Positions 6,216 through 61,554 of a stretch of DNA of 64,000 nucleotides are shown in pieces. A model generated the notes under the pieces. The model worked only from the letters and a program-made list of their open reading frames with translations. It had not been told where the DNA came from and ran no database searches. Position numbers and translations under genes: made by a program. Location of the stretch: the NCBI GenBank assembly GCA_963770895.1, contig CAVYRF010000002.1, forward strand, positions 5,760,001 through 5,824,000. Direction: 5' to 3'. Position 1 is the first letter of the stretch; each line of letters starts with the position of its first letter. The stretch is from an uncultured Acidobacteriota bacterium. GTDB lineage: Bacteria > Acidobacteriota > Thermoanaerobaculia > Multivoradales > UBA5704.

Positions 6216-7699
6216 GCGGGCAGCCCCACGGCATCGGGTTGCACAAGCGAGGATATCCTTGACGGGGGCGCACTCGGGGAGTTGGAATTGGTCCAAATGC
6301 CACGCAAGCTCTCGTCTTCGAGGAGCGCGAGCGTTTTGCGGTAATCCCTGGCCTCGGCAATCCGCGTCACCTCGATATCAGCAGGTGGCAATTCTGTCGC
6401 CGCAAGGATCTCATCCAAGGTAACGCGAAAAAATTCCCTGCGTTCGTTGATTCGGTTCATGCGCCGATAGTGGAAGATGCGGTGAAGCTTGCACTCAAGG
6501 GCGGGAGCATCCTCCGACCGGATCATAGCGTGCACGTCGAAATCGAATGGCACAGCGGCGCCGCTTAGCTCTCGCACCCGCTCTTGGGGGTCGAGCCTGC
6601 GTGTCATGCCGATCTTGAACACGTTCTCACCAAACGATCCAATGTTAGAGATGATATAGACGTTTCCTGAACGGGTCAGCTGTGCTTGTGAGATGGCGCG
6701 CTCCTTGGCAGCGCGAGCGTCGGCGAGCTTTTGCTGCAGCTCGGCGATCTGTGCATTCATCTCTTCTCGCTTGGCCCCCTCTGTCCGTTCGATCTCTCCG
6801 CGTGCGCGGGCGAGCGCCTGCTCGTAGCGTGTCTCTTCCCGTTCGGCCTCAATCCGGGCCTTTTCCATCTCCCTTTGGGCGATCTCTTCTTCCCGAATTT
6901 GCTCGCGCAGGCGGCGCTGTTCCTCTTTCTCCTCTTGCACCTTCTCCTGATACTCGTGAGCCAGGTGTAACTCTTCCAGCTTTAGGGCTTGGAACGCTGA
7001 TGAGATTTGGCACTTCTGCACCTCGGCAAGACTATTGATCTTCTCTAGCGCTTTCTGGATGCGCGCTTCCATGACGCCCACATTATTGAATTTCACTTTG
7101 GCGACAGCGGCATCGCACTCGCCATTGAAAGCCCGCAGCATCAGGTTAAGCGTCTGGGAGATCTGTTTTCTACCTTCTACTTTGCTGCCATTTACCGTCC
7201 ACGCAATGCCGCATGTCGCCGCCGTTTTCGACTTGATCATCTCCTTCTGTGCATCGCGAATCCGCTCCAACTCTGCCTGATAGTGGGCAGAGTCAACAAA
7301 TTGATAACGCGGTTTGTAGAAACCAAAAGATTGCAGCGTGGATTCTTCGTCGAGCGACTGAAGCTCCCTGCGGAGCATAGCTATTTGCGACTGGACGTCC
7401 GTCAATTCAGCAGTTGCCGACGATCGCAACGCCTGGAGCTTTTCTGTCTCCTGCCTTTGCAGCGCCTTTTCCCGCTCGCCGGATGCAATCGCTTCGTCCC
7501 GATCCCGCTGCAAGCTGATGAGGATCCGCGATCGCTCGGCATCGGCATCGATTACACCTTTAAAGCGCTCGGCAAGGGCGTCTTGAGAGGCTTTCAGGGC
7601 GTCTCTTTCGGCCGACAAAGCACCAAACCGTCGTGAGAGGAGTGCGATGATGAGAATTGCAATTGCGAGCAGAATTATGGAGATGATCAGCGGATACAT
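6206..7699 (-). CDS. Membrane-anchored DUF4041 + T5orf172/GIY-YIG-like nuclease (PD-Lambda-1/SNIPE-like)
   Basis: N-terminal TM helix, coiled coil, LMLRAFNGECD (DUF4041), GNVYIISNIGSFGENVFKIGMTRRLDPQERVREL..A.VPF.FDVH; GC visibly lower than flanks. Confidence 0.85.
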   Translation of the reverse strand: MYPLIISIILLAIAILIIALLSRRFGALSAERDALKASQDALAERFKGVIDADAERSRILISLQRDRDEAIASGEREKALQRQETEKLQALRSSATAELTDVQSQIAMLRRELQSLDEESTLQSFGFYKPRYQFVDSAHYQAELERIRDAQKEMIKSKTAATCGIAWTVNGSKVEGRKQISQTLNLMLRAFNGECDAAVAKVKFNNVGVMEARIQKALEKINSLAEVQKCQISSAFQALKLEELHLAHEYQEKVQEEKEEQRRLREQIREEEIAQREMEKARIEAEREETRYEQALARARGEIERTEGAKREEMNAQIAELQQKLADARAAKERAISQAQLTRSGNVYIISNIGSFGENVFKIGMTRRLDPQERVRELSGAAVPFDFDVHAMIRSEDAPALECKLHRIFHYRRMNRINERREFFRVTLDEILAATELPPADIEVTRIAEARDYRKTLALLEDESLRGIWTNSNSPSAPPSRISSLVQPDAVGLPAHG

Positions 7700-44518: not shown

Positions 44519-45085
44519 TTATACCTCTAGCACCTTCGGCATCGAGGCCCATTGGTCCTCAAATCTATCCCTCCATTCTTGAAGAATGCCATAAAATCTG
44601 TCGGCGGCAAGATATATATCGCTTACGGAGAAGGGATCGAACCTACCCGAACATCTAAACGCCACTAGACGAACACGGTCATGGATGTCGAATTGCAATA
44701 TATGGCTGCCATCATCAAATGCCTCATCGCCGTCTGGGGCCCAAAGAAGGCGGTGCGAATAGGTCATATTAGAGAATTCTGCCTGTGAAACCCCAAAGAT
44801 CGTCTCGCTAACATGGCCATCAGAGTAGAGACTCGAGCTGACGGCCTCGGCGATCTGATCTGCACCTGACTCGGCGATAAACGAAGTGTGCTTGCCACGA
44901 TCGGCTATGCGTCGCTCAACCTCGTCGAACGAATTGGCTAACATTGATGCGTGGGGACTACATACGCCGTAGCGACTCCCCTTCACGTAGATCACGAAGT
45001 AACCCAGGGCTCGCAGGCTCAGCCGCTCATAGGCGCGGGTAATGCTTGACTCAATAGCAGCAATTGAGGGCTCACCCACGATCAT
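44519..45085 (-). CDS. Immunity protein, Imm42-like
   Basis: MIVG.P...AIES.I..AY....ALG.F, EAFDDGS.ILQFD..RVRL.AF; overlaps the Rhs stop; low GC. Confidence 0.72.
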   Translation of the reverse strand: MIVGEPSIAAIESSITRAYERLSLRALGYFVIYVKGSRYGVCSPHASMLANSFDEVERRIADRGKHTSFIAESGADQIAEAVSSSLYSDGHVSETIFGVSQAEFSNMTYSHRLLWAPDGDEAFDDGSHILQFDIHDRVRLVAFRCSGRFDPFSVSDIYLAADRFYGILQEWRDRFEDQWASMPKVLEV

Positions 45086-48000
45086 TCAATAGCCTCCTAA
45101 TCTCGATGGGTATATTGTCCTGCCTGATTGGCTCGGGACCTGCCGTTGAGCCATTCCAATGAGATTCACCATTGCTTGGAGCGCTGAACCGATGAATCGT
45201 TCCATCTTCATCCTTAGCCCATCGAACACCTTTCTCATCGACGACCGACTTATCGAAAAGCTCTTGGGCGTTCTTTGGTTCTGGGCTAGGCGAGCCCGGG
45301 TGATGCTTAGGATTTGTGACACGCTTCGGACGCGTCTCCATTTCAGGATCGGCACTCTTGGGCGCTGGGTCTCCGGCCTTTTTCGTTTTCGGCTTGTCTC
45401 GTTGTTCGCTAGCAGTCCCCTTATCATGCAACTTCATCGCATATGTGACGCCATTTGCGGCCACCGCAGCAGCGCCTGCCGCGGCTGCAGCCCCCCCAAC
45501 ACAGCCGGCTGCGGGCACAAGAACGCCAGGCCCAGTTACGACAGCTGGGACTGTTGCAGCGCACGCGACCGCCGTTTCTGCGCCTGCGGCCCCCGCCCCC
45601 GTTGCCCCCGCAGCTGCTCCGAAGATTGATCCCACATACTGTCCGGCGCGTTGGGCTGTAGTATCGTTGTTCTTGGGTTTTGAGTTCGGATCGTTCGGAT
45701 TAATACTGCCTGCGAGCCCCTGGCCAACTCCGGCGGCAAACTCCGTAGCTACCCGCTTGGCGCAATCTGCAGTGCTTTCGCCCTCGTTGCAGGTCCCCAA
45801 CGGGTCGCTGCCGTTTCCCGGGTTGTCCATCTCAAAGGCGTACGTTGACGGTCCATCAATGTACCCCTTCGGGTCCGCCGTGATGAACCGCCCCAGCTGC
45901 GGGTCGTAGTAGCGGTTGCGGAAGTAGAGGAGGCCGGTTTCGGGGTCCAGGCTGCGGCCTTGGTAGCCGAAGAGATTGCCTAGGGCGGAGCCGGTGGCGA
46001 GCTGGGGGTTGGGGGCGGTGTAGACGATGAGGCTGTCTTGCGCTGTGACGGTGGTGAAGGTCTGGCTGAAGGGCGCGGCGAGAGGCTGGTTGCCCGCATC
46101 GGTCAGGGTGGTGGCGATTGTCAGGGTGTGCGCGCCGGCGGCAACTGGATTGGCTGCTTGGAGCGTGTAGTGGTCGGCAGCCAGGCTCCAGGTCAGGCCT
46201 ACGCCGTCCAGCTGGATCGCTGCCGTCGCTGCGGCCAGGTTTGGCTCGGCGGAAAACTCGACCGAAAGCATCCCCTGCTGCAGGGTGACGCGCTGCACGG
46301 TGGGGGCTGCCAGGCCGGCGACGACGGCGTCCGAGGCTGGCCAGGTAAAGGCCAGCGTGTAGTCGTGGGCGGGCTGGTTGAGGAAGCTGTCGACCAGGGC
46401 GCCGGCCGGGATGGTCAGGGTGACCTGGTCGCCGGGCTGGAAGCCTCCGGGAGGCTGGCCTACCAGGACCAGGCGCCTTTGGGCCAGGTCTCCGGTGGTC
46501 ACGGGCTGGGTGACGGTGAGTGCCCCAAATGCGGCGGGGAGGGTGTTGTCAAAGAGCTTCAGGGTGCCGACGGTGGCGGCCTGGGCGAGCGGGCCGGGGT
46601 TTACGGCCTCGGAGAGCTCGACCCAAACGGCGTTGCCGACGACCCTCACCTGCTCAACCGCAGGCGGAGTGGAGTTTACCAGGATCGTCTGGGTGCCGTA
46701 GGGGGTGTAGTCGTAGCGCTCGATGGGTAGACCGGTCGGACCGGTGAGCAGGACCAGATTGCCGGTGGAGTCGTAGAGGGGCCAGGACTTGGTGGCGACG
46801 GTGCCGGTGCCGTCCAGGTCGGACTCCAGGTAGACGATGTCGTCGAGGCTGTCGCCGTAGGTGCGGCGCTGCAGGAGACGGCTGCCGTCGTAGTCCTCGA
46901 TGGGGTGCCAGCCCTGCCAGGTGGTGGTCTTGACGTCTCCTGCCACGGTCTTGGCAATGCGGCGGTTCCAGGCGTCGTAGTCGTAGTGGGCGATGGGGTT
47001 GTTGCTGCCGTCGGCGACGTCGGTGAGGCGGTTGCGGAAGTCGTAGGAATAGTGAACGTTGCCCTTCTGGATCAGGTTGCCGTTGCGGTCCCAGACCAGC
47101 GCTACCCCGCTGACGGAGCCCGGCCGGTTGCGGCCCGAGCCGTCGAGGGGCAGCGCGGTCGTGGCAAGCACTCCGGCGTTGGTGGCGGTGCGGGCCAGCA
47201 GGTTCTGCGCTACGTCGTAGGTGTAGCCGAAGGCGTCCGGCAGGCCGGCCAGGGCGGGCGGCGCGACGGCGGTGTTGTTGGGTGTCAAGGTCAGCGGCGC
47301 CGGCGATTTGGCGGCCTGGATGAGGCGCTCGGCGGGGTCGTAGGCGAAGGCCAGGCCCTGGCCGCCCAGGTCCTGGCGCGCTTGCGCCGAGCGCAGGCCG
47401 CGCGGGCTCCAGGCCAGGCTCTCGCGCATGACGGTCTGGGGCGTGCCGGTCTGGGTGCCGATCTGCAGCCAATCGTCGACCATGCGGTCGGCGGCGTCGA
47501 ACTGGCGCAGGCCGGTGACGCCGTTGGCGAGGGCGCGGGCGGCCAGCAGGTCGGGGCCGCGGAAGCCGAAGGTGGCGAGCGGCGTGGACGACGTCGGGCC
47601 GACAGACTGCAGGCGATCGAGCGGATCGAAGGCGCGCACCAGGTTGAGGCCCGACGGATAACCGATCGCGGTTTCGTTGCCGGCGTCGTCGTAGGTGTAG
47701 TTGACGAACTTGCCGCCCAGCGATTCACTGGTGCGCCGCGACAGGGAATCGAACGTCAGGTCCGTCGTCTGGTTGCCGGACTGCGCGTGGGTGAGCCGCC
47801 CCATGCCGTCGTAGACATAGGACTCGGACAACGCTCCGCCCTGGCGCGAGGTCATCCTGTTGAGCGCATCGAAGACCTGCTGGATCAACGTTCCGTTGGG
47901 GTCGGTGACCTGGGTGGCGTTGCCGTTGGCGTCGTAGGCGGTCTGCTCGGTGGTGTGGTCCGGCCAGGTGACCAGGACCAGGCGGTTGAGGGCGTCGTAG

Positions 48001-48385
48001 GCGTAGGTGGTGGCGTTGCCCGGGGCGTCGGTGTAGGCGGTGAGGCGCGAGCTGGCGTCGTAGGTGGAGTCCACCTCGATGCCCAGCGGCTGGACCCGCT
48101 TGATCAGACGATTGAGCCCGTCCCAGGTCTGGGTGGTCAGGTTCTGTTCGGCATCGACGCTCAGCGCCAGCTGGTTGCGGGCGTCGTGGGTGAACACCTC
48201 GGCGTTGCCCAGGCCGTCGGTGCGGGTGGCCTGCCGGTTGAGGGCGTCGAAGGTGGCGGTTGCGGTGACGGTGACCGATCCGCCGGTGCCCGGCGCGCCG
48301 ACGCCTTCGTACTGTTCGATCGTGCGCGTGGTGACGGGATTGCCCGCGGCGTCCAGGTCGTGCTGCACGACGTTGCCGGCGGGGT
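45072..48385 (-). CDS. Orphan Rhs cassette C (5'-truncated core + Ig insert + putative RNase-type toxin KHH..HRF..HWNGST)
   Basis: YD repeats, RYYDPQLGRFITADP, PGNGSDPLG cleavage motif; Rhs homology begins abruptly at 48385 and no clear start codon or RBS is visible. Confidence 0.85.
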
Positions 48386-48546
48386 GTCCGCTAATCCGGG
48401 GCAAGGCCAGGGCTCGGCGCGGAGCGGCGGAGGCCGGCGCAGCCGGCCGCAGCGCGAGCACCGAGACCGTTCCTTCTGGGAGCCCCCTTGAGGGGGCGAC
48501 CGCCCGGCGGCCGGCGCTCCCCGGCAGTCCCTGAGGCCGGCCCCAG

Positions 48547-48571
48547 TTGACATAAGCCTCGCTTATGTCAA
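48547..48571. other. Palindromic dif-like site (XerD-arm type) TTGACATAA-N7-TTATGTCAA
   Basis: Perfect 10-bp inverted repeat; arm resembles the XerD half of dif (TTATGTTAA). Confidence 0.65.
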
Positions 48572-48599
48572 GGCCGCAGGCCCAAGGCGGGGCGGCCGA

Positions 48600-48637
48600 G
48601 GGCCAGGTCGGATAAGTGCACTTATCGGACCTGGCCC
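48600..48637. other. Palindromic dif-like site (XerC-arm type) GTCGGATAA-N6-TTATCGGAC inside a 38-bp palindrome
   Basis: 38-bp palindrome with one mismatch, extended by a 13-bp outer stem 48587-48599/48648-48660. Confidence 0.6.
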
Positions 48638-49180
48638 GTATGATCGATCGGCCGCCCCGCCGCCGCTCGGGCCGGCCCCGTCGCAAACGGTCCGACGCCG
48701 GCCGCCGGGCGGGACGGGGTGATCCGGCGGCCACAGCGCAGCGGCGGCCGCGATCGATGCGGGCTCCGCGCGGAGCGGCGGAGGCCGGCGCCGCCGGCCG
48801 CAGCGCGAGCACGGAGACCGCTTCCCTACAGGTCTCCCGACAGGTCCGGCCTGCTTCATCGGCCCGGCTTGGAGTGAGTGGGGTGTGCATACACCGCAAG
48901 TGGTGCGGCGCAAGATAGTTGCCGGGAGCGAAGACCGTTGTATGCGCCGCAGCCGCCCGGAGAGATGGGGCCGGAGAGCCGCCCCGCGGCGTGCCGTGTA
49001 CCCGAGCCGCGGAGCGGCGAGGGCCTACCCTGCGCGTGCGTCAGCACGCGTGCGGCGGGGCATGAGAGACCAGCGATCAGGGGCGGCCTGGCGGGGAGAG
49101 CGCGGGGCGCGGCGCACCAGATCACCCAACCCGCTGCGGCGAGCGGAGATCGGGCCGCCACGGTCACGCCGCGGGCCTTC

Positions 49181-50227
49181 TCAGGCTTCCTCGTCGGCGG
49201 CCTCGGCGGCCAGATCCGCGGCCAGGTCCTTGCGGGCGCTAGCCGGGTCGTCCGCCGGGTCCGCCGAGGCGCCGGCCGTCGAACGCTCCAGGCGCGCCGG
49301 ATGGGTCACCGTATGGATCTCCTTGAGCTTCTTGACCGCGACTTGCGTGTAGATCTGCGTCGTCGAGATCTCGGCGTGGCCGAGCATCTGCTGGATGAAG
49401 CGCAGGTCGGCGCCGTTTTCCAGCATCAGCGTCGCCATGGTGTGACGGAAGAGATGACACGAGCCGGTCTTACCCACCGCGGCCGACTCGATGTAGCGCT
49501 TGGCCAGCTTCGACAGCTGGTTGAGCGCCAGCGCCCGGCCCTCCTCGGAGAGAAACAGCGCTCCGTCGTCCGGCTCCACCGCCAAGCTCGGTCGCACTTC
49601 GATCAGGTACTTGTCGACCCAGGCCACCGCCCGCTCGCCGATCGGGATCAGACGATCCCGGCCCCCCTTGCCTTGGCGCACCATCACCAGACCCTGGTCG
49701 AGGTTCACATCGAAGACACCCAGCCCGATCAACTCCTTGCGCCGCACACCCGTCGAATACAGCGTCTCCAGGATCGCCCGGTCCCGCACACCCAGCGGCG
49801 TGGCGACGTCGGCCTGGTTGAGCACCTGCTCGGCCTCCGACGCGGTCAAGATCGCGCGCGGCAGACGATGCATGCGACGCGGCAGCTCCAGCTCCGACGC
49901 CGGGTTGTAGAGGATGTAGCTGTTCCGCGTCAGCCAGCGAAAAAACGACCGCACGCAGATCAGCCGCTGGTGTTGGCTCGCCCAGCTCAGCGGTTTGCCG
50001 CTCGCCTGCCGATAGAGGAAAAGATGACGCTGGTAGCGCTGGAGCACCGGGCGCGTGACCTCCTGCGGCCGGGTCAGGCCCCGCTCTTCGCACCAAGCGA
50101 AAAAATATCCCAGGGCCTTCGCCTGGACGCGGACCGTCTCCTCGGCGTACCGGGTGACCCGGCTCCACTCCAGGAAATCCACCAGCAGCGCCTGAGGACG
50201 ACGCCGTGTCCGGGGCAGCCGAGACAT
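49181..50227 (-). CDS. XerC/D-like tyrosine recombinase
   Basis: All catalytic residues present: TGVRRKE (R), GKGG (K), HLFRH, LGH, TQIYT (Y). Confidence 0.93.
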   Translation of the reverse strand: MSRLPRTRRRPQALLVDFLEWSRVTRYAEETVRVQAKALGYFFAWCEERGLTRPQEVTRPVLQRYQRHLFLYRQASGKPLSWASQHQRLICVRSFFRWLTRNSYILYNPASELELPRRMHRLPRAILTASEAEQVLNQADVATPLGVRDRAILETLYSTGVRRKELIGLGVFDVNLDQGLVMVRQGKGGRDRLIPIGERAVAWVDKYLIEVRPSLAVEPDDGALFLSEEGRALALNQLSKLAKRYIESAAVGKTGSCHLFRHTMATLMLENGADLRFIQQMLGHAEISTTQIYTQVAVKKLKEIHTVTHPARLERSTAGASADPADDPASARKDLAADLAAEAADEEA

Positions 50228-50230
50228 GGC

Positions 50231-52750
50231 TCAGCGGCTCCCGACAGCCGCCGGCGCCGAGCCATTGCTACGATGCGAGCCGGGGTACGACGACGGGTTT
50301 TCCTCGGGGTCCAGATGTGCGTTTTTCGGCGATTTTGCCGAAAAACCACCGGAAACACCTACCAGGGCTACGTTTTCCTCACTCCTGTATGGACCGGTAT
50401 GGCCCCGGTATGGGGCCGGTATGGCACCCCAAAGCGAGCCTGCCACCACCCCAAACCCACCCTCCGGCCCCCCCAAACTTTCTGTCGTACCGCCAGCCGG
50501 CAGCGCTGACGGGTCGAGCAAGCCCAGCAGCACCGGCCGCCCGTCCTCGCCGCCGCCCTCGTACAGCAGCTCGTAGACGAAGCTCTGGCCGCGCCCGCCA
50601 TGGTGCACCACCAGGTATTCGAGCGCCACCAGGCGGTCGAGGTGGACGCGCACCTGCTCGTAGCTCCAGCCGCTGTACGCCCGCACCTCCCGCCGGCTGA
50701 AGCGGTAGTCGGCGCGCGCTATCGCCAGACGCTCGCACGCCTCCCGCACCATCCCGTCGAGCTGCCCCAGCATCCGCCGCGTCTGCGGCGGCAGCTCGTC
50801 GAGCGAGCGCCCCAGCACCTCGGCGGTCAGACGGTTGGCGACCGCGATATCCGACGGCTCCACCTCCAGGTACTCGATCGTCTGGCCGTGCAGCTCCGCT
50901 TTGCGCACCGGCCGCTGGTGCTGGTAGAGCAGCGCGATCGCCCGGATCAGCGTCAGGTATTTCATGTGATCCCGCCGCGTCCGCGTCTGGCTGTCGAGGA
51001 AAGTCAGCCCCGGCGCGTATGGGTTGGCCACCGCCAGCGGCCGCAGCAGACGTTGCGCGTTGCGGTGCAGCCGCTCGATCGCCTTGCGCTCCTCGCGCGC
51101 CAGCAGGCCGGCCAGCGTCTGCGCCGTCCGCTGCGCCCGGTGGATCGCCCGCGTCTGCTCCCGCTCCTCGTCCACCGTCAGCACCAGGCAGCGGTTCAGC
51201 AGCTCTTCGTCGAGGTCGATCGCCGTCGTGGTGAGAAAGATCATCACCGGACCCTCGACCCGGTACTCGTGCGTCGTCAGCTTGCCCGTCGCCGGGTCTT
51301 TGCCCGTCGAAGCGATCGTCAGCTCGCCCTCGCTCTGCAACAGCTTCAGCGCGTAGGACGCCCGCTCCGCCCCCTCCTCCTCGACGATCGCCAGGATCTT
51401 GTGACGCAGATCCGTCTCCCCCATGTAAAACAGCGATTGACCCGTCATCGCCGAGTACTGCACCCGCTCCTCCTCGGGCACCAGCGACAGCACCGCCTCC
51501 ATCAGCGCCGACTTGCCCGCCGCCGTCGAGCTCTGGACGATCACCGCCAGCGGCTCGTCGAGCTTGCGCGACACCGCCGCAAGGTAGCCCACCAGCTTGT
51601 TGGTCTCCTCTCCCACCACGCCGCAGAGCGCAAAGTCCGCGAGAATCCGCCCCAGCAGGTCCGGCGACGACAGCAGCTCGAGCGCTGCGGCGCGCTCCTC
51701 GGCGCTCATCGTGACCTCCTTCGCCACCGGGTGCAGCGCCGACTGGATCTGCGCGTCCTGGAGCTGTTCGAGCTGGAGCAGCACCTGGCCCAGGTCCCGC
51801 TTCACCACCTCGGGCTCGACGCCCAGCTCGCCGGCGGCCTGCTGGATGAAGCTCGCCCGCTGTCGCGCCGAGTAGAGATCCAAAGTGTCCACGTGGAAGC
51901 TCTCACCGCGGCCGGCCAAGAGGTTGATCTTCAGGCTCTCGTACGAGAGGTTCTTCGCCAGCCCCCGCACCCGGTAGCGCCGGTCACCGAGGCGGATCAT
52001 CACCTCCTCCGGCTTCACCTCCGCGGGCAACGGAGATGCCGCCGGCGCCAGCGCGGGCAGCAGCGACACCGGCGGGACCGGCGATGCCAGCGGCGCTGGG
52101 GACGGCGCCGGCAGCTCGGCCGCGGTGGAAGAAAAAGCAGCGACTAAAGGAGAAACAGCGGGAGCCAGGGCCGAGCCGCGAGGCGCCGCCGGCGACGGCG
52201 GCCTGGGGGACGCCGGCGCCGGATCGTCGGTGCCACCCCCGGCGACGAGACTCGCGCCCGCTGGCGGCAGCTCGGGTGCCAGGCCGTGGCCTCCGGTGCT
52301 CGCACCGCCGCCCCTTCTTTTCCCTTTAGCTGCTGCTTTTTCTTTTGCCGCCGCTTCCTCCGGCACCGCCGTGACCTTCGCCACCTCGGCCGCCGCAGGC
52401 ACCGGCATCGACGCGGCGACGGCAAGCGTGGCCAAGGTGACGGCGCCGGCAGCACGGGCGCCGGCGAGCGTAGCCGAGGCGGCGGCGCCGGCGGCGCTGC
52501 CAACAGAGGAAGCGACAAGGGCGGGCGTCGAAGCCTGCCCGGCGATCCCCTCGCTGGCGGGCACCGCACCGGACGACGCCGGCGTCGTCCCGCCGCCCAG
52601 CCACACCGCCCGGCGCAGCGCCAGCTCCAGGCTCTTGGCTGCCGGCGTCACCTTCTGCGCGTACTCGTTGGCGTCCATACCGCGCGGAAACTGCACCCGG
52701 TAGCAGCCGATGCCGGCCGCCGCCAGCTGCTCGGCCAGGGCCGCCGCGGC
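50231..52750 (-). pseudogene. 5'-truncated DNA primase (Toprim tail) + P-loop ATPase/helicase protein
   Basis: Begins mid-Toprim (AAAALAEQLAAAGIGCYRVQFPRGMDANEYA); SSTAAGKS Walker A, IVEEEG Walker B; frame runs straight into the RBS of the divergent XRE gene. Confidence 0.78.
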
Positions 52751-52762
52751 AAGGAGACAACG

Positions 52763-53161
52763 ATGCAGGAGCCCCTGACCGATATGGAGCGAGACGAGAT
52801 CCTGAAAGCCTTTGGTGCCCGCGTGAAGGACCTGCGCAAGCGGAAGAGTTGGACGCAGAAACAGCTCGCCGCCACCCTCGACGTGCGTTTCTCGCAGCTC
52901 AACAAATACGAGAGCGGCCTACACGCTCCCCCTCTCGACAACCTCGTCCAGCTCGCCGAGATCCTCGATACCTCGGTGGACTACCTCCTCACCGGCGATC
53001 CAAGGGGCAGTGTCCCGCTCTCCAGTATCCGACTCCTCGACCGCTTCCGCGCCCTGGAAGCCTCCGAGGCCGACGACCGGGAAACCGCCATCAAGCTCAT
53101 TGATGCGCTGATTGTGAAACGACAGGTGGAAGGAGCGCTACGGCCCTTCGAGAGCCGATGA
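52763..53161 (+). CDS. XRE-family HTH transcriptional regulator
   Basis: AAGGAG RBS; FGARVKDLRKRKSWTQKQLA...KYESG..P....QLAEILDTSVDYLLTG. Confidence 0.9.
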   Translation: MQEPLTDMERDEILKAFGARVKDLRKRKSWTQKQLAATLDVRFSQLNKYESGLHAPPLDNLVQLAEILDTSVDYLLTGDPRGSVPLSSIRLLDRFRALEASEADDRETAIKLIDALIVKRQVEGALRPFESR

Positions 53162-53253
53162 TGTGGCGGCTAATGAGTGGCAGGGGGAAAGATACCCTTG
53201 GTCGCGGTAGGCATAGGGCGTGCCTGAATTACGCGAAGCACAGTAATGGCTCC

Positions 53254-54423
53254 TAGTGTAGTGCGCCCTAATTAGGAATCCTTATATGCGGTTCGTACGT
53301 ATCGTCCTGTGGGAGGATTGGGACGATGCGGATCGCACCGTTGGTTCTGGTTTCGCCGGAGGAAAGGCGGCAGTTGGAGGCCTATGCCCGAGGCCGCAGC
53401 ACGCCGACGCGTCTGGTGCAGCGCGCGAAGATCGTCTTGCTGGCCGCCGAGGGCAAGGAGAATCGGGAAATTGCCGAAAGTCTTGGCATCATGCGGCATA
53501 CCGTCGGACGTTGGCGGAGCCGCTTTTGCCAGTTCGGCCTGAGCGGGATCGAGAAAGACGCGCATCGAAGTGGGCGCCTGCCGAGCCTGTCCCAGGGCTT
53601 GCTACGGAAGATCGTGCGCAAGACAACGCAAGAGACGCCGCAGGACGGCACTCATTGGAGCACGCGGAGCATGGCCGAGGCGGTCGGGGTCAGCGCCTCG
53701 ACGGTGCGCCGGGTCTGGCAGCGGCACGGCCTCAAGCCTCATCGGGTGCGGACCTTCAAGCTGAGCAACGATCGACGCTTTGTCGAGAAAATGGAAGATG
53801 TCATCGCGCTCTATCTCAACCCGCCAGAGCACGCCCTCGTCTTGTGTGCCGATGAGAAGAGCCAGATCCAGGCTCTTGATCGGACTCAACCCGGCCTGCC
53901 GATGAAGAAGGGCCGCTGCGGCACGATGACGCACGACTACAAGCGCAATGGCACCACGACGTTATTCGCGGCCTTGAGTACGCTGGACGGTAAAGTCATC
54001 GGTAGCTGCATGCCGAGGCACCGCCACCAGGAGTGGTTGAAGTTCCTCAAACAAATCGATCGGGAGACACCCGCAGCCAAGCAAATCCACCTGATCGCCG
54101 ACAACTATGGCACCCACAAGCACGCGGTCGTTCTACGCTGGATCGCTCGGCATCCGCGATTTCACCTTCATTTCACTCCGACCAGTGCCTCCTGGCTCAA
54201 CATGGTCGAACGCTTCTTCCGACACCTGACCGAGAAGCAAATTTCCCGTGGAGTGTTCCGCAGTGTCGACCAGCTCGAATCCGCGATTCTGGGGGCGATC
54301 GAGCGGCACAACTCTGATCCTAAACCCTACATCTGGACGGCTAAGGCTGCTGACATCCTCGAAAAGGTCAAGAGAGCACGTCTCAGACTGAATAAGGTCC
54401 CATCTGTGTGACGCACTACACTA
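53254..54423 (+). mobile_element. IS630-family element (complete copy 2)
   Basis: IRs TAGTGTAGTGCG / CGCACTACACTA; TA duplication at a CTAG site. Confidence 0.93.
53326..54411 (+). CDS. IS630 family transposase
   Basis: [35 protein letters not shown]. Confidence 0.95.
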
Positions 54424-56297
54424 GCGGGCACCACTCTCCACTTGGCTGTGGACCGTCGTACCGGACAACGACATCTGCAAATCCAAAGTGCCAGAATTCT
54501 TTTGCATTCTCCCCAATAGCGCTAGTAGCCTGCCGCAGCGCGTCGTCACACTGCTTAGAATCGAAGCTAACACAATAGTCCGTAAAGTTGAACAAGCTTT
54601 GAGCGTTGCACATGTCTTCGTTGCGCGTCGGACAAGAAATAGCCAACTTGCCCGAAAGCTCCCACGCATCTCTGTAGATTCCCTGCAACCTGTGAAGCGA
54701 TCCGACCCTATTGTCGGTGATGAAGCCCTCTATCGGCATTTTCAGACTAGCAGCACTCCTCTCTCGACACGGCCCTCCCAACGAGCAGCCCCAGAGAACC
54801 AGAGCTAAGAACGAACCAAGAAGCGCCAACGTCGCAGCAGCCTTAGTTCTTCTCGTTCTTGATATCCTCAACAAACTCTTGCCCCTTCTTGTCTGCAGTG
54901 TTCGCATGTTTCTTGTGGATCGCTGTAGCATCCTTGGATTCTTGCAAGCCCTTGGGGCCGAGAAGGCGCTGATACTCGGCCACTCGCTTAACCGGATCGT
55001 TCGGAAACGCCTTTGCTGCAGCCTCCTGCGCCGCCGCTGTCGTCGCGTTGAATTGCTGTATGCGAATGGCTTCGCTAGCGTACGCTGGATCGGTTACGGC
55101 TGACATGAAGTGGCCCTGCTCTTCGTGACCCACCACGTAAACCTGCTTCTCCCTACCAGAGCCCTTGAGTTTCGAGGCGTTAGGGTAGTTTGGATCGTTG
55201 ATATCTCGGAGAAAGTTCGGTCCGACATTCAGCTCAGCCGAGACGATCTTCCCTTTCTCGTCAGCCTTATAATTCGTCACCTCTGCGCCCACATTCTTGC
55301 CCGGCGGCGCCGATGAATACTTGACGGTAAGTTTAATGCTTGGATCATCCTCAAGGGTTTTTGCGGCAACAGCGCCCTTGGGGGTCTTCTTAAACTCCTC
55401 ATAAGCCTTCCTGTATTCCTGCTGCACCTTCTGAGCGGCCTTGTCTTTCGGATCGGGCTCTTGTTCGACTCTTTCCAATCCCATCGGGTCGCTGTCGTTG
55501 GCCGGGTCGTCCACCTCGAAGGCATACTCGCTCGGGCCGTCGACGTAGCCCTTCGGATCGGCGGAGATGAATCTGCCGAGTTGTGGGTCGTAGTAGCGGT
55601 TGCGGAAGTAGATGAGGCCGGTTTCGGGATCCAGGTTGCGGCCTTGGTAGCCGAAGAGATTGCCCAGAGCGGAGCCGCTGGTGACCTGCGGGTTGGGGGC
55701 GGCATAGACGATGAGGCTGTCTTGCGCCGTGACGGTGGTGAAGGTCTGGCTGAAAGGCGCGCCCAGGGGCTGGTTGCCCGCATCGGTCAGGGTGGTGGCG
55801 ATTGTCAGGGTGTGCGCGCCGGCGGCAACTGGATTGGCTGCTTGGAGGGTGTAGTGGTCGGCGGCCAGGCTCCACGTCAGACCGGCGCCGTCCAGCTGGA
55901 TCGCCGCCGTCGCTGCGGCCAGGTTTGGCTCGGCGGAAAACTCGACCGAAAGCATCCCCTGCTGCAGGGTGACGCGCTGCACGGTGGGGGCTGCCAGGTC
56001 GGCGACGACGGCGTCCGAGGCTGGCCAGGTAAAGGCCAGCGTGTAGTCGTGGGCGGGCTGGTTGAGGAAGCTGTCGACCAGGGCGCCGGCCGGGATGGTC
56101 AGGGTGACCTGGTCGCCGGGCTGGAAGCCTCCGGGAGGCTGGCCTACCAGGACCAGGCGCCTTTGGGCCAGGTCTCCGGTGGTCACGGGCTGGGTGACGG
56201 TGAGTGCCCCAAATGCGGCGGGGAGGGTTGTCAGCGAGACGCCTAAATTCCCCCCATGCCGGACGCTAAATTTCCCCCCCTCCGGAAGGAGGCAGGG

Positions 56298-57680
56298 ATG
56301 AGCGAAGCAAGTGGCAGCGAGATGGAGTCGGCCTTGGTGCCGGCGGCGCCTGCGGCACCGGCGGCCGAGGCGGAGGTGCAGCGGGGAGCGGTGTCGGACA
56401 TGCTCTCTGCGGCGCCTGGAGGCGCCCAGGAGGGCGAGTTGGTCGACGAGCGACTGTGGGGAGTGATCGCCGCTTTGCGGGAGCGTGGCGTGGCAAAGAA
56501 GGCGATTGCGCGGCAGCTCGGGCTCGACGTGAAGACGGTGCGGAAGTGGTGGCAGCGGAGCTGGCAGGCCCAGCAGCGCCGGCGGCGGGGGCGCCTTCTG
56601 GATCAGTGGGAGGCGTTCTTGCGGGCGCGAGCGCCGGAGGTGGGGTTCAACAGCGTCGTGCTGAGCCGCGAGCTGGCAGGTCTTGGCCAGCGCTGCTGCA
56701 CCTCGACGGTCTCAAAGTACATCGCGCCATGGCGAGCGGAGCAGCGGGCGGTGGAGCCGACGGTGCGGTTCGAGACCGGCCCCGGCAAGCAAGGGCAGGT
56801 GGACTGGGGGAGCACCTGGATCTATCTCGGCGAGGAGAGGGTGCGGGTGCACCTGTTCACGATGGTGCTGGGCTTCAGCCGCCGGCTGTTCGCCAAGGCG
56901 TACCTCAACGAGGGGCTGGAATCGCTGCTGGACGGTCATGCGGCGGCGTTCGCGCACTTCGGCGGTCGTCCGGAGAGCTTGCTGTACGACAACCCGCGGA
57001 CGATCGTCACCGCCAAGGACGAGGCGACGGGCAAGGTGAGCTGGAACGCCACCTTCAAGGACCGCATGGACTTCTACGGGTTGAAGCTCCAGCTGTGCCG
57101 CTACTACCGGGCTCAAACGAAGGGCAAGGTGGAGAGCGGCGTCAAGTACGTCAAGGGCAACGGCTTGGCGGGCCGGCGTTTCGCCAGCCTCGATGCGCTC
57201 AATGATCACCTTCTGAGATGGTGTGTGGAGGTGGCCGACCAACGGGTGCACGGGACGACGCACGAGAAGCCTGCGGAGCGATTCGCCCGTGCCGAGCGGC
57301 TGATTGCGGTGGACCAGCGTTCACCGACGCCACGGGAGCGGGTGGTGAGCCGGCAGGTGCCCCGTGACGCCTACGTCGCGGTCGAGGCCAATCGCTATCC
57401 GGTGCCGCTGGAGTGGGCTGGCGCGGTTGTGGAAGTGCGCCTTCTGGCCGAGGAGATCTGGATCCATCGGGATGGGGCCGATCCCGTCCGCCATGTCCGG
57501 TTGACGGGCAAGCACCAGGTGGCGCGCTGGAGCGGTGCTGGCCGGGAGGTGCCGCGGCGACCACCCGCGCCCGCTGCGGGGCCGCCGCGCTTCGATCCGG
57601 CCTACGTGGAGCAGATCGGCGAGGTCGAGATCCGTCCGCTCGGCCGCTACGAAGGGCTGCTCTCCGAGGTGCACTCATGA
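56298..57680 (+). CDS. istA: IS21 transposase IstA
   Basis: RFETGPG.QGQVDW, YDNPR, QTKGKVES, RVHGTT. Confidence 0.94.
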   Translation: MSEASGSEMESALVPAAPAAPAAEAEVQRGAVSDMLSAAPGGAQEGELVDERLWGVIAALRERGVAKKAIARQLGLDVKTVRKWWQRSWQAQQRRRRGRLLDQWEAFLRARAPEVGFNSVVLSRELAGLGQRCCTSTVSKYIAPWRAEQRAVEPTVRFETGPGKQGQVDWGSTWIYLGEERVRVHLFTMVLGFSRRLFAKAYLNEGLESLLDGHAAAFAHFGGRPESLLYDNPRTIVTAKDEATGKVSWNATFKDRMDFYGLKLQLCRYYRAQTKGKVESGVKYVKGNGLAGRRFASLDALNDHLLRWCVEVADQRVHGTTHEKPAERFARAERLIAVDQRSPTPRERVVSRQVPRDAYVAVEANRYPVPLEWAGAVVEVRLLAEEIWIHRDGADPVRHVRLTGKHQVARWSGAGREVPRRPPAPAAGPPRFDPAYVEQIGEVEIRPLGRYEGLLSEVHS

Positions 57681-58489
57681 GCGCCGGTACGGTCCAGATC
57701 GATCGGCTCCAGGAGCAGCTGCGGCGTCTGAAGCTGGTGCGCACGGCTGACCAGCTGCCGTCGCTGCTTCAGGAGGCGAGCAAGAAGGAGTTGCCATATA
57801 CCGACCTGCTCGAGGATCTTCTCGGCCGGGAGCTGGCGGCCAAGCAAGAGCGCCACACGGCGATGAAGACGAGCATGGCGCGCTTCCCGTTCCACAAGAC
57901 GCTGGAGAGCTTCGACTTCAAGTTTCAGCCGTCGATCGAGCCGAAGGTGATCCGAGAGCTCGCCACCTGCCGGTTCATCGCCGACGCGGACAACGTGCTG
58001 CTGCTCGGGCCGCCCGGGGTCGGCAAGACGCACCTGTCGGTGGCCCTGGGCCTGAAGGCTTGTGCCGCCGGCTACCGGACGGCCTTCGCGACGGCGACCT
58101 CGCTGGTCAACACGCTGACGCGGGCGCACCAGGAGAACCGCTTGGAGGAGAAGCTGAAGCAGCTCATCCAGCCCAAGCTACTGATAATAGACGAGATCGG
58201 ATATCTGCCGCTCGACCGTCTGGGGGCGAATCTTCTCTTCCAGCTGGTGTCGCGCCGCTACGAGCGCGGCTCGATCCTGATCACGTCGAACCAGAGCCTG
58301 GCCGGCTGGGGTCAGGTCTTTGGCGACCAGGTGATCGCGACGGCGATTCTCGACCGGCTGCTGCATCACTCCACCATCGTCAACATCAAGGGCGAGAGCT
58401 ACCGGCTGAAGGAGAAGCGCAAGGCTGGGCTGCTGACGCGCAGCGAGCCGCACGTCGCCGAGTCGCTTGCGGCCGAGGAGGCGAGCTGA
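57677..58489 (+). CDS. istB: IS21 helper ATPase IstB
   Basis: GPPGVGKT, IIDEIGY, ILDRLLHH, GESYR; ATGA overlap with istA. Confidence 0.95.
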   Translation: MSAGTVQIDRLQEQLRRLKLVRTADQLPSLLQEASKKELPYTDLLEDLLGRELAAKQERHTAMKTSMARFPFHKTLESFDFKFQPSIEPKVIRELATCRFIADADNVLLLGPPGVGKTHLSVALGLKACAAGYRTAFATATSLVNTLTRAHQENRLEEKLKQLIQPKLLIIDEIGYLPLDRLGANLLFQLVSRRYERGSILITSNQSLAGWGQVFGDQVIATAILDRLLHHSTIVNIKGESYRLKEKRKAGLLTRSEPHVAESLAAEEAS

Positions 58490-61158
58490 TCATGCGGTGG
58501 CAAAGAAGCGAGTCCGCCATGATCGCCGCCCTGGGAACGCCCTCAAGGCCAGCGCGCGCTACGCGCCTGGGAGGGAGTGTCTGGTGCCGATCTCCCAGGG
58601 TGGCGGCGCCGGCGACGGCTGCCCTCCCGTCCCCCACCGCCCACCCAACGCACGCATGGGCTATGGAAGGCGCCGGGTCGGCGGAAACCGCGGACCCAAC
58701 GGGGGCCGCCCGTGTCGCTACGCTCCACGGCCCCCACCCACCGCGGCCCCCGGTCCGCCGTTCCCGCCGCCCCTTGGAAACCGGCTCCCGGCCCCCCGCG
58801 CACCCGCCCTTCACCCACCCACCCTCGCCGCTTTCCACCCCTTCCACAGCCCCGGCGACGAGGTACGCATACCTGAGTTTTAGAAGCAAAAGCAACAGCA
58901 CTCAGCAGGCAACGGTAAACCCGAGACCTGTCCCTGCGGGACAGGTCCACTAACCGAGGAGGGGGGGAAAATTAACGTCGCGCTGGGGGGGAAATTTGGC
59001 GTCGTCTTGACAAGGGTGTTGTCAAAGAGCTTCAGGGTGCCGACGGTGGCGGCCTGGGCGAGCGGGCCGGGGTTTACAGCCTCGGAGAGCTCGACCCAAA
59101 CGGCGTTGCCGACGACCCTCACCTGCTCAACCGCAGGCGGAGTGGAGTTTACCAGGATCGTCTGGGTGCCGTAGGGGGTGTAGTCGTAGCGCTCGATGGG
59201 CAGACCGGTCGGACCGGTGAGCAGGACCAGATTGCCGGTGGAGTCGTAGAGGGGCCAGGACTTGGTGGCGACGGTGCCGGTGCCGTCCAGGTCGGACTCC
59301 AGGTAGACGATGTCGTCGAGGCTGTCGCCGTAGGTGCGGCGCTGCAGGAGACGGCTGCCGTCGTAGTCCTCGATGGGGTGCCAGCCCTGCCAGGTGGTGG
59401 TCTTGACGTCTCCTGCCACGGTCTTGGCAATGCGGCGGTTCCAGGCGTCGTAGTCGTAGTGGGCGATGGGGTTGTTGCTGCCGTCGGCGACGTCGGTCAG
59501 CCGGTTGCGGAAGTCGTAGGAATAGTGAACGTTGCCCTTCTGGATCAGGTTGCCGTTGCGGTCCCAGACCAGTGCTACCCCGCTGACGGAGCCCGGCCGG
59601 TTGCGGCCCGAGCCGTCGAGCGGCAGCGGGGTCGTGGCGGGCACTCCGGCGTGGGTGGCGGTGCGGGCCAGGAGGTTCTGCGCCGCGTCGTAGGTGTAGC
59701 CGAAGGCGTCGGGCAGGCCGGCCAGGGTGGCCGGTGCGACGGCGGTGTTGTTGGGCACCAGGGTCAGCGGCGCCGGCGATTTGGCGGCCTGGATGAGGCG
59801 CTCGGCGGGGTCGTAGGCGAAGGCCAGGCCCTGGCCGCCCAGGTCCTGCCGCGCTTGCGCGGAGCGCAGGTTGCGCGGGCTCCAGGCCAGGCTCTCTCGC
59901 ATGACGGTCTGCGGCGTGCCGGTCTGGGTGCCGATTTGCAGCCAGTCGTCGACCATGCGGTCGGCGGCGTCGAACTGGCGCAGGCCGGTGACGCCGTTGG
60001 CGAGGGCGCGGGCGGCCTGCAGGTCGGGGCCGCGGAAGCCGAAGGTGGCGAGCGGCGTGGACGAGGTCGGGCCGACGGACTGCAAGCGGTCCAGAGGATC
60101 GAAGGCGCGCACCAGGTTGTAGCCCGACGGATAGCCGATCGCGGTTTCGTTGCCGGCGTCGTCGTAGGTGTAGTTGACGAACTTGCCGCCCAGCGATTCG
60201 CTGGTGCGCCGCGACAGGGAGTCGAACGTCAGGTCGGTCGTCTGGTTGCCGGACTGCGCGTGGGTGAGCCGCCCCATGCCGTCGTAGACGTAGGACTCGG
60301 AGAGCGCTCCGCCCTGCCGCGAGGTCATCCGGTTGAGCGAATCGAAGACCTGCTGGATCAACGTGCCGTTGGGATCGGTGATCTGGGTGGCGTTGCCGTT
60401 GGCGTCGTAGGCGGTCTGCTCGGTGGTGTGGTCCGGCCAGGTGACCAGGACCAGGCGGTTGAGGGCGTCGTAGGCGTAGGTGGTGGCATTGCCCAGGGCA
60501 TCGGTGTAGGCGGTGAGGCGCGAGCTGGCGTCGTAGGTGGAGTCCACCTCGATGCCCAGCGGCTGGACCCGCTTGATCAGACGATTGAGCCCGTCCCAGG
60601 TCTGGGTGGTCAGGTTCTGTTCGGCATCGACGCTCAGCGCCAACTGGTTGCGGGCATCGTAGGTGAACGCCTCGGTGTTGCCCAGGCCGTCGGTGCGGGT
60701 GGCCTGCCGGTTGAGGGCGTCGAAGGTGGCGGTCGCGGTGACGGTGACCGATCCGCCGGTGCCCGGCGCGCCGACGCCTTCGTACTGCTCGATCGTGCCC
60801 GTGGTGACGGGGTTGCCCGCGGCGTCGAGGTCGTGCTGCACGACGTTGCCGGCGGGGTCGGTGGTGGCGGTGCGCCGCTCGGCGGCGTCGTATTGGAACT
60901 GCGTGGTGCGATGCAGCGGATCGATCACCGCCACCAGGTTGGACGCCGGGTCGTACTGGTAGGACGTCGTCAGGTCGCGCGCGCTGCCCGGCAGCCCGGA
61001 ACCGTTGGTCTGGGTGCCGATTTGCAGCCAGTCGTCGACCATGCGGTCGCCGGCGTCGAACTGGCGCAGGCCGGTGACGCCGTTAGCGAGGGCGCGGGCG
61101 GCCTGCAGGTCGGGGCCGCGGAAGCCGAAGGTGGCGAGGGGCGTGGACTCGGATTAAC

Positions 61159-61548
61159 TCAAAGTCCATCCGTGGCAACGCCCGTAAATCTGTCCCACTC
61201 ACGGCAATATGTTCTGCTTGCTTCACCGAGCATCGGAGCTATGCGACGAAAATCAAGTTGTCCCGCAGAGGCTTGCGCCAGCAATGACTCCAAAAAACCA
61301 GTGGCAATGGCAGCTTGTGTTTCTTCATCGGACATAACCAAAAAGTTCTCGACAAGATCGAAGATCGCACGCATTTCTCCATCGGAGATGTCGGTTGCAT
61401 TTTGCGCCAATGCTTGCGCAATCACTCCCATTGCGAAGGTGACAGGAGGCTTATCCGGCATCCAGTCACTTTCCAAGTCCCGTATAGACCTGCTAGTGGC
61501 ATTTGTCAACTTGGCCAACTGGCGCACGCTTTCATATGTCGATGGCAT
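61159..61548 (-). CDS. Immunity protein of cassette A (helical, CdiI-like)
   Basis: Immediately after the toxin stop, low GC, F..VE..L......AIATGFLE.L pattern. Confidence 0.7.
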   Translation of the reverse strand: MPSTYESVRQLAKLTNATSRSIRDLESDWMPDKPPVTFAMGVIAQALAQNATDISDGEMRAIFDLVENFLVMSDEETQAAIATGFLESLLAQASAGQLDFRRIAPMLGEASRTYCREWDRFTGVATDGL

Positions 61549-61554
61549 GGATTT

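Follow-up and report, generated by a model that had tools for sequence, protein, structure and literature searches.

Two neighbouring palindromes, called site A and site B here, lie downstream of a gene for an Xer-like tyrosine recombinase, the integrase of an integrative element, in the 64,000-nucleotide (nt) stretch of DNA analysed here (the window), which comes from an uncultured Acidobacteriota bacterium (contig CAVYRF010000002.1, positions 5,760,001 to 5,824,000). The arms of A match the XerC arm of the single dif-like site in the host genome and those of B its XerD arm, and the two seem to be folded-DNA sites for Xer-family recombinases in a form that we have not found described, on a carrier element that also seems to be undescribed. 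We give about an even chance to the reading that A and B are dif half-sites, each capped by a hairpin, at which XerC and XerD (and, at a third hairpin called C, the integrase) would act on folded DNA, rather than fixed duplex sites for protein dimers. What points to capped half-sites on folded DNA is the combination of covarying long-range helices, terminal loops of only 3-4 nt, and a spacing between half-sites that ranges from 5 to 8 nt.

Site B (48547-48571) reads TTGACATAA-GCCTCGC-TTATGTCAA, a perfect 9-nt inverted repeat about a 7-nt centre; drawn as a hairpin, it has 11 base pairs (bp) and a 3-nt loop. At three or fewer mismatches it is unique in the window, where 0 matches are expected (100 shuffles), and it is also the sole match across the 8,164,432-base genome. 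Read along the integrase-sense (-) strand, its 3' arm continues into the adjoining helix P1 as TTATGTCAACT. The palindrome at site A (48600-48637) spans 38 nt, with ungapped 19-nt arms that are 95% complementary; along the integrase-sense strand it reads GGGCCAGGTCCGATAA-GTGCAC-TTATCCGACCTGGCCC, with the 5' arm GGTCCGATAA, and just one position does not pair, being C.C on that strand and G.G on the + strand. A 28-nt gap separates the two, A beginning 29 nt after B, and they lie 544-634 nt downstream of the stop codon of the integrase gene (49181-50227, - strand), in a region (approximately 48400-49100) where GC content at third codon positions gives no coding signal. The original prediction, made from the sequence alone, had placed two palindromes downstream of a recombinase, the second 29 bp after the first and inside a longer stem; both are present, B perfect and A with one non-pair, and the longer stem corresponds to the 14-nt helix P2 described below. 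The TTGACA in site B was also considered as part of a sigma-70 promoter and rejected, no usable -10 element being found by eye at a 17-bp spacing on either strand.

The host genome (G000) contains a single dif-like site of the pattern N7-ATAA-N6-TTATG, namely ACGTCCGATAA-GATATA-TTATGTAAACT at G000:C2:5712238-5712265, 96 kilobases (kb) from sites A and B. Its XerC arm, ACGTCCGATAA, agrees with GTCCGATAA of site A at 9/9 positions, and its XerD arm, TTATGTAAACT, agrees with TTATGTCAA of site B plus the flanking CT at 10/11. By this measure A, and B with its two additional nucleotides, are predicted to be recognizable by the host XerC and XerD, respectively, and the description of the arms as dif-like, which had been put forward before any host dif was at hand, is solid at the sequence level. 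The word GTCCGATAA occurs four times in the host genome, dif and site A included, and TTATGTCAACT twice, where 0.15 occurrences are expected; the genome encodes both an XerC-like protein (333.7 bits) and an XerD (345.8 bits). Neither A nor B is a canonical Xer core site, each having two arms of the same type instead of one XerC and one XerD arm. The outer arms of the pair, taken together, do form one reversed dif on the + strand, as had been noticed.

A similar agreement between element and host is seen in several other genomes. The XerC arm of the dif-like sites in G004 and G005 is GTCCGATAA, and the same arm is present in their elements (L002 and L026). G002 has the dif-like site ACTTCGCATAA-TGTATA-TTATGTTAACT, and its elements carry TTCGCATAA-TGCGCA-TTATGCGA, while in G007 and G001 the element arms are within 1-2 nt of those of the host dif-like sites; no dif candidate was found in G006 or G008. 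From genome to genome the arm type thus appears to track the host, a pattern that is suggestive, coming as it does from few genomes and from the binning of metagenome-assembled genomes (MAGs). The distance from the dif-like site to the element or array is 96 kb in G000 and approximately 101 kb in G001 (site at G001:C5:819830), both of them complete-looking genomes. In G009, a 10.2-Mb MAG with the loci L110, L113 and L115-L117, the dif-like sites number five and all differ; their arms are GTCYGAT(A/T)A on one side and TTATGTAAACT or TTATGTCAACT on the other, and they could reflect several replicons, Xer-exploiting elements or a mixed bin.

Relatives of the integrase were collected by a scan of one genome per species, which found 234, and 80 loci with 52-61% identity were kept. 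Their record titles, which are MAG labels, name Myxococcota, Acidobacteriota, Verrucomicrobiota, Actinomycetota, Pseudomonadota and others, and the relatives often lie 7-12 kb apart on one contig. A search for the motifs downstream of these recombinases shows the A-B pair to be conserved: A followed by B is present in 17/80 genome loci in a strict scan, and a more relaxed reading adds A/B in L008, L078, L025, L028 and L041. Relatives from metagenomes number 482; among 53 metagenome loci with at least 500 nt of downstream sequence, A is seen in 10, B in 9 and both in 6. Site A of the relatives has the form GTCCGATAA-N6-8-TTATCCGAC or TCGCATAA-TGCGCA-TTATGCGA, and site B, TTTACATAA-N5-8-TTATGTAAA, follows roughly 40 to 140 nt after A. 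The closest relative, L144, has a site B identical to that of the window; the same A arms with the same non-pair are found in L002, L010, L018, L023 and L026, and L037 has the same non-pair with a variant 5' arm, TTCCGATAA. The A stems of L019 and L016 are perfect, and the C.C non-pair recurs in several other loci. Hairpin C, in the form GCCCCCT-loop-AGGGGGC, follows B in 13/19 loci examined. In L057 (6352-6493), hairpin C is followed at the module position by two complete dif-like sites, AAGTAACATAA-CGCGGGA-TTATGCGCAAT and GCGCCGCATAA-TCAGCG-TTATGTGTAAA, inverted and 56 nt apart; this layout, like that of CTX attP, supports the presence of Xer substrates that act when folded at this position of the element. 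Viral contigs yielded one partial integrase fragment only, and phage records distant integrases only, with at most 36% identity.

The sites are parts of a nested fold, here called the module. The outer stem P2 (48586-48661) pairs 48586-48599 with 48648-48661 at 14/14 positions and bears site A across a one-sided 10-nt internal loop. Helix P1 (48535-48677), which pairs 48535-48546 with 48666-48677 in 11 pairs and one mismatch, surrounds both A and B, and the outermost helix P0 (48500-48712) pairs 48500-48516 with 48696-48712 at 17/17 positions. Site B abuts P1 directly, so that the conserved CT/AG which forms the first pairs of P1 would complete an 11-bp XerD arm by stacking. Hairpin C (48482-48497) reads GCCCCC-TTGA-GGGGGC on the + strand and GCCCCCTCAAGGGGGC on the integrase-sense strand. 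The folding energy of the segment 48531-48681 as single-stranded DNA is -63.7 kcal/mol (z -8.9) for the integrase-sense strand and -64.0 kcal/mol (z -10.3) for the + strand, and that of 48472-48722 is -105.2 kcal/mol (z -9.7); 0/200 shuffles fold as stably for each of the window folds computed, and both strands of the module fold equally well. The folded module is bracketed by two 60-nt direct repeats that are 95% identical, DR1 (48410-48469) and DR2 (48761-48820). These G+C-rich repeats are also present twice in L144 (1703-1767 and 2058-2123), there is one copy of the motif in L010-type loci, and in some of the G001 copies one motif lies inside a 110-nt indel between the integrase stop codon and the module; the direct repeat was rejected as a general feature of the family, being clear in L144 only, plus the single copy in L010-type loci.

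The fold is conserved along with the sites. A complement of the bases right after B (CTT...) is found 140-240 nt upstream (...AAG) in 16/16 modules, at 10/10 bases in 12 of them (in two of which the best complement match is an outer helix), 9/10 in three and 8/10 in one. This helix comes in three sequence versions, GGGGCGG/CCGCCCC, CCCGCCG/CGGCGGG and GGGCCGG/CCGGCCC, and all 16 minimum-energy folds contain a closed multibranch with A and B as hairpins. RNAalifold predicts 64 pairs in a set of seven sequences, 21 of them with compensatory changes on both sides; 95.3% of the cells pair, compared with 84.9% in shuffles (0/500 shuffles reach the observed value), and pairing drops to 48% or less once the helix partners are slid. 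A second long-range helix shows compensatory change in 8/12 pairs. Two copies in the G001 array, L020 and L005, have lost the A-B segment by different deletions (as judged against L019 in alignment A1), both of which end at the foot of the long-range helices, one of them at a GGGGCG microhomology; such deletion ends are expected for structure-forming DNA.

The position of the sites within the element is clearest in this same array (G001:C5, approximately 921-989 kb; L105-L109), where seven tandem units come after a full-length rhs open reading frame (ORF) of 1685 amino acids (aa). XRE, primase, integrase and module make up each unit, behind which lie an orphan rhs tip and a small ORF, and some adjacent units are 100% identical. 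The homology of the full-length rhs gene to 7/7 orphan tips starts at the same base, with ...CTGTCCCCT before it and TCACCCGAGG... after it. This junction lies inside an imperfect inverted repeat, CTGTCCCCT-TCACCCG-AGGGGGTCAG, in the rhs core-coding region, approximately 0.7 kb beyond B, and therefore A and B are not where the chromosomal crossover takes place. Such an array is what Campbell-type insertion of a circle into the core-coding part of rhs would leave, the insertion having been either site-specific or homologous through the approximately 350 bp of shared core. The arm words of hairpin C are those of the G001 junction repeat, and similar repeats are found in L006/L007 and L025/L028; from these shared words, hairpin C is a putative capped half-site for the integrase itself. 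Of the idea that A and B are attachment sites folded as single-strand hairpins, only the folding is supported: the covarying helices, the spacing and the minimal loops argue for hairpins, and the location of the junction argues against attachment. The single-strand hairpin reading fits best of the three mechanisms that the original prediction had offered. Two whole contigs, L007 and L174, have terminal direct repeats of 129 and 127 nt and carry units of approximately 7.6 and 6.7 kb with A, B and C; the terminal repeats indicate a circular or tandem unit.

The mechanism that we propose begins with each half of dif pairing with its own inverted copy, which would give a short hairpin on single-stranded or extruded DNA. 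P0 would enclose P1, and P1 both B and the P2 stem that carries A, with hairpin C following, the whole lying within the non-coding arm between the integrase gene and the right end of the element. Folding could take place whenever this arm is single-stranded, for example as the lagging-strand template of the excised circle or as a transferred strand. Hairpin A would then supply a single half-site of the XerC type, hairpin B, through its stacking on P1, a complete 11-bp half-site of the XerD type, and hairpin C a half-site like the core arms of the integrase, and each of the three would bind one recombinase monomer, the folded form presumably being the active one. What the recombinase complex does is speculative: the loaded junction may be an accessory Xer-dependent site for the upkeep or processing of the excised replicon rather than for the chromosomal crossover, possible uses being the control of copies or multimers and the holding of the replicon at the septal Xer/FtsK machinery. 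Its purpose is much less certain than binding on folded DNA. In a Pseudomonas copy of the element, the same place behind the integrase gene is taken by a RelE/ParE addiction pair, a weak positional hint at a role in maintenance. One further possibility, an unlikely one in our judgement, is that the module represents a new class of folded-DNA site, on which three capped half-sites assemble host and element recombinases on one strand and allow a chemistry that no duplex dif permits, such as the joining of the outer arms into a dif-like site with release of the inner segment, or the sealing of hairpin ends to give a linear replicon.

Double-stranded symmetric Xer sites are the rival that survives best, though we regard them too as unlikely. 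Here A would bind two monomers of XerC (or of the integrase) and B two of XerD, and either like sites on sister or multimeric copies would recombine, in a resolution much like that at cer/psi for which a single type of recombinase would suffice, or an exchange between A and B would unmask a dif-like site. The arm-centre-arm layout of A and B is indeed that of tyrosine-recombinase core sites, the 6-8 bp centre of A is self-complementary in most loci, which is what full symmetry of a duplex site would entail, and the G001 array, with its identical neighbouring units, is proof that there are multimers or repeated insertions. However, the distance from ATAA to TTAT among the relatives is 6-8 nt in A and 5, 7 or 8 nt in B, varying in B even among closely related elements, and the stems of both sites run on to loops of 3-4 nt; this combination fits hairpins well and a fixed protein dimer on duplex DNA poorly. 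The centres of A and B also differ from each other in length and sequence, so that an A x B exchange would leave mismatches, and the covarying helices P1, P1b and P2 are left without a role. The hybrid that such an exchange would produce (C arm, centre, D arm) was sought in the 80 genome loci and was absent from the module position of every locus bearing A and B; matches occurred only in L057 and L070, both with a different layout. This also tells against the suggestion that the inner arms would make a dif once the segment between them was excised, to which a centre of 5 to 8 nt in B is in any case poorly suited.

Another candidate function, which we consider rather improbable, is replication: the module would be an origin, or a single-strand initiation site for the DnaG-type primase/ATPase of the element, and the dif-like arms would either recruit host proteins or be secondary. 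Hairpin single-strand initiation signals do occur in phage G4 and RSF1010. The module lies just downstream of the primase-integrase operon, has a stable multi-hairpin fold on both strands, and holds the few A+T-rich bases in a region of 73% G+C, and in L010 it is followed by iteron-like 26-nt repeats. Such a signal would nevertheless leave unexplained both the exact identity to dif arms over 9-11 nt and the switch of arm type with the host, and there are relatives with the same primase that have no module. The L010 repeats (6793-6851) are two A-rich direct repeats, 33 nt apart, in the stretch that separates hairpin C from the orphan tip ORF, and they resemble iterons or part of a promoter region.

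We think it very unlikely that the module is a structured RNA, either the 3' untranslated region of the integrase gene or a small RNA controlling the displaced toxin and immunity genes, although a conserved, covarying structure between two co-oriented genes is what such an RNA would look like. A scan of 48200-49300 against Rfam 15 (E up to 10) gave five chance-level matches, of which the highest reaches 28.9 bits where the gathering score is 150, and thus no family match. G.U pairs number 39 against 1203 Watson-Crick pairs in the sense direction (about 3%) and 84 against 1241 in the antisense direction. This scarcity of G.U pairs, the equal folding of both strands and the dif words in the stems argue for DNA rather than RNA; identity to dif arms makes sense only for recombinases that bind DNA. 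The motif GTCACG-N4-CTTGCA, which has sigma-54-like spacing with GT for GG and is seen in L019 (6250-6275), L057 (6085-6160) and other relatives, was rejected as a promoter for a module RNA, its position varying with module type and such a promoter being placed so as to exclude the 5' strands of P1 and P1b. The motif is conserved beside site A, which it precedes in one type of module and follows in another; it is partly paired within a hairpin and is absent from the window.

It is still less probable that A, and perhaps B, is a hairpin-telomere resolution site at which the integrase or XerC would cut the strands 6 bp apart and seal them to give a linear, hairpin-ended plasmid. N15-type linear prophages combine a repressor, a primase-helicase and a tyrosine-recombinase-type enzyme with an adjacent palindrome, and the gene set of the element recalls theirs; in many loci the palindrome of A is almost perfect and is centred on a self-complementary hexamer rich in G and C (GTGCAC, TGCGCA, CGCGCG or GGCGCC). 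The profile results, however, place the integrase among ordinary Xer-type recombinases and include no match to a protelomerase family, and L057 has non-palindromic inverted dif-like sites instead. Hairpin-end resolution, which was among the mechanisms offered originally, also leaves the nested helices unexplained: they are asymmetric about A, with B and the extra hairpins on one side only. Finally, operators of the XRE repressor or chance palindromes can be set aside as scarcely credible, for though the element has an XRE gene and palindromic operators are common, the arms equal those of the host dif, the chance expectation is 0, and none of the eight relatives examined has the half-site words between its XRE and primase genes, so that the operator alternative named in the original prediction is not supported.

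Several points weigh against the reading of A and B as capped half-sites on folded DNA. We know of no precedent for Xer proteins on capped half-sites, and the replication protein of the element looks theta-type (primase/ATPase), no rolling-circle or transfer gene having been seen. The equal folding of the two strands leaves neither of them to be singled out. A/B sites are lacking from the majority of loci, both of the 80 in genomes and of the 53 in metagenomes. Among plasmid relatives with 52-61% identity, the two examined share the gene set and have no A/B-type sites; these Pseudomonas and Janthinobacterium megaplasmids imply that the module is dispensable for integration and replication, and it is thus an accessory of one sub-lineage. 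The candidate dif of G003 (GATACGCATAA...) is unlike the A arms of the element in G003, the assignment of hosts relies on MAG bins, and, there being only two hosts of the GCATAA type, the co-variation of host and element is not statistically established. The covariation within the fold comes from seven sequences, three of which are near-identical copies from one genome, and so this evidence is good but not final. Lastly, the copy in the window is decayed and probably inert.

Capped half-sites of this kind would have relatives of several sorts among known systems. In the attP of phage CTX, inverted dif-like copies fold on one strand and so present duplex Xer-binding arms. As in CTX and other integrative mobile elements exploiting Xer (IMEX), the dif-like arms studied here are borne by an element, match the host dif and occur in inverted copies able to fold, and the two complete inverted dif-like sites of L057 share the attP layout itself. 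The window differs in having the order C-x-C' ... D'-y-D, with one arm type to each capped hairpin and no stem made of a C arm, a centre and a D arm; and unlike an IMEX the element has its own Xer-like integrase, is found in an rhs locus 96 kb from dif and has its junction elsewhere. Integron attC sites are likewise imperfect palindromes folded for an Xer-related recombinase, in arrays of exchangeable cassettes, and the C.C non-pair of A recalls their extrahelical bases, but there are no R or L box words, the repeated unit is the whole 7-12-kb element rather than an ORF with its attC, and the integrase reaches 105 bits against an integron-integrase cut-off of 265. With cer and psi the module would have in common binding sites for host Xer proteins on a replicon, accessory flanks and a part in maintenance, all of which are predictions here; in cer and psi a single duplex core unites an XerC arm with an XerD arm, whereas here the arm types are separated and each is made symmetric. 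The telRL site of N15, which goes with a protelomerase and RepA, resembles the present arrangement in being a palindrome beside a tyrosine-recombinase-type gene, with a primase-helicase and a repressor; the enzyme family is another one, and the helices here are asymmetric about the palindrome.

In the one full-text library searched, nothing turned up on dif half-sites that are symmetric or capped by a hairpin, nor on the element. Integrase or XerC/D-like genes have been noted near rhs and polyimmunity loci, as an association with speculation attached, and displaced toxin tips with immunity genes have been described downstream of the full-length gene (PMC5727410, PMC3482391); the passages of those two papers that deal with such loci do not describe a primase-integrase element, tandem arrays or dif-like hairpins.

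The carrier is an integrative replicon that goes into polymorphic-toxin genes, rhs among them, at the 3' end, where it displaces the toxin tips, often in tandem arrays. Segments resembling the rhs core are found downstream of the integrase in at least 31/80 loci (by tblastn in 28 loci, plus Pfam); a strict regular expression for the rhs core had found them in 10/80 loci only, and tblastn and Pfam were used instead, while cross-phylum tblastx gave too much noise at this high G+C content to define the ends of the element. Genes other than rhs are also hosts to the family: a P. aeruginosa plasmid (L212) has this gene set behind a TpsA2 two-partner-secretion gene, and the same small ORF recurs after the element, and in a Janthinobacterium plasmid (L213) the set follows an FG-GAP-repeat gene and an Imm26 gene lies downstream. 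Both of these copies have VbhA-type and RelE/ParE-type genes and no dif-like hairpins. In L010, the orphan tip ORF starts with an element-derived, signal-peptide-like stretch of 81 residues.

In the window, the parts that define the carrier are present, namely XRE gene, DnaG-type primase/P-loop gene, Xer-like integrase gene, and displaced tip with immunity gene, truncated at both ends; the layout of 44519-64000 is the same as that of the G001 array, broken by insertion sequence (IS) elements. The 348-aa integrase matches Phage_integrase (134 bits) and a SAM-like N domain, scores 440.9 bits against a cut-off of 371 for NF002331 'XerC', falls below the integron thresholds (105.2 bits against 265 for TIGR02249 and 72 against 435 for NF011946), and is present in a single copy in the genome. 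The gene at 50231-52696 (- strand) is the remnant of a DnaG-type primase/P-loop protein, with 67% identity over 565 aa to a 1054-aa protein of L010 that contains a Zn ribbon, a DnaG core and Toprim; it lacks about the first 378 residues, its residue 1 corresponding to residue 379 of the L010 protein. Divergent from it is the XRE-family repressor gene at 52709-53113 (+ strand), identified by tblastn and by RstR/HTH matches in an ORF at 52286-53161. Above the XRE gene lie an IS630, then a 171-aa ORF (54416-54931) that follows the upstream rhs tip, and an rhs 3' core with a different toxin tip (54843-56186, - strand). The core of the latter is 86% identical over 237 residues to residues 627-863 of the downstream rhs protein, and the two diverge just past a DPxG(L) motif. 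Further rhs pieces are found at 58880-61042 and 61555-63999, with an interruption by IS21 at 56256-58489.

On the other side of the element is a 5'-truncated rhs gene of approximately 1100 aa with its own toxin tip (45072-48385, - strand; RHS_repeat, 104.9 bits; third-codon GC signal at approximately 45650-48350), followed by an Imm42-family immunity gene, assigned by family match (44519-45085, - strand). Between this rhs gene and the module, some 28 nt (48383-48410) are the same as the terminal bases of three IS copies at other places in the genome, the string of 28-31 nt recurring at G000:C2:1557774, C1:1249461 and C1:1490283. It is a solo remnant marking a deletion in which the right end of the element was lost and the 5'-truncated rhs gene fused to what remained; homology to L144 ends exactly at 48410, and a metagenome contig carries the rhs gene past 48385 into other sequence. 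Four soil-metagenome runs from one study (shares 0.05-0.19) gave no coverage of 48446-49291. Elsewhere in the same genome, outside the window, three or four tyrosine-recombinase genes lie in a row on the same strand (G000:C2:3826681-3830423), in an arrangement like that of a recombinase-in-trio.

If Xer proteins do bind capped half-sites, these would be a third form of natural Xer substrate, beside duplex dif-type sites and the forked hairpin of CTX. The elements bearing A and B are recorded in bacteria from soil, peat and sediment labelled with several phyla. Their carrier targets the 3' end of polymorphic-toxin genes (rhs, TpsA-type and others), where it installs a new tip and immunity gene and pushes the old pair downstream. 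It thus offers a concrete and testable route to the rapid turnover of contact-dependent toxins, which until now has mostly been ascribed to homologous recombination with orphan cassettes.

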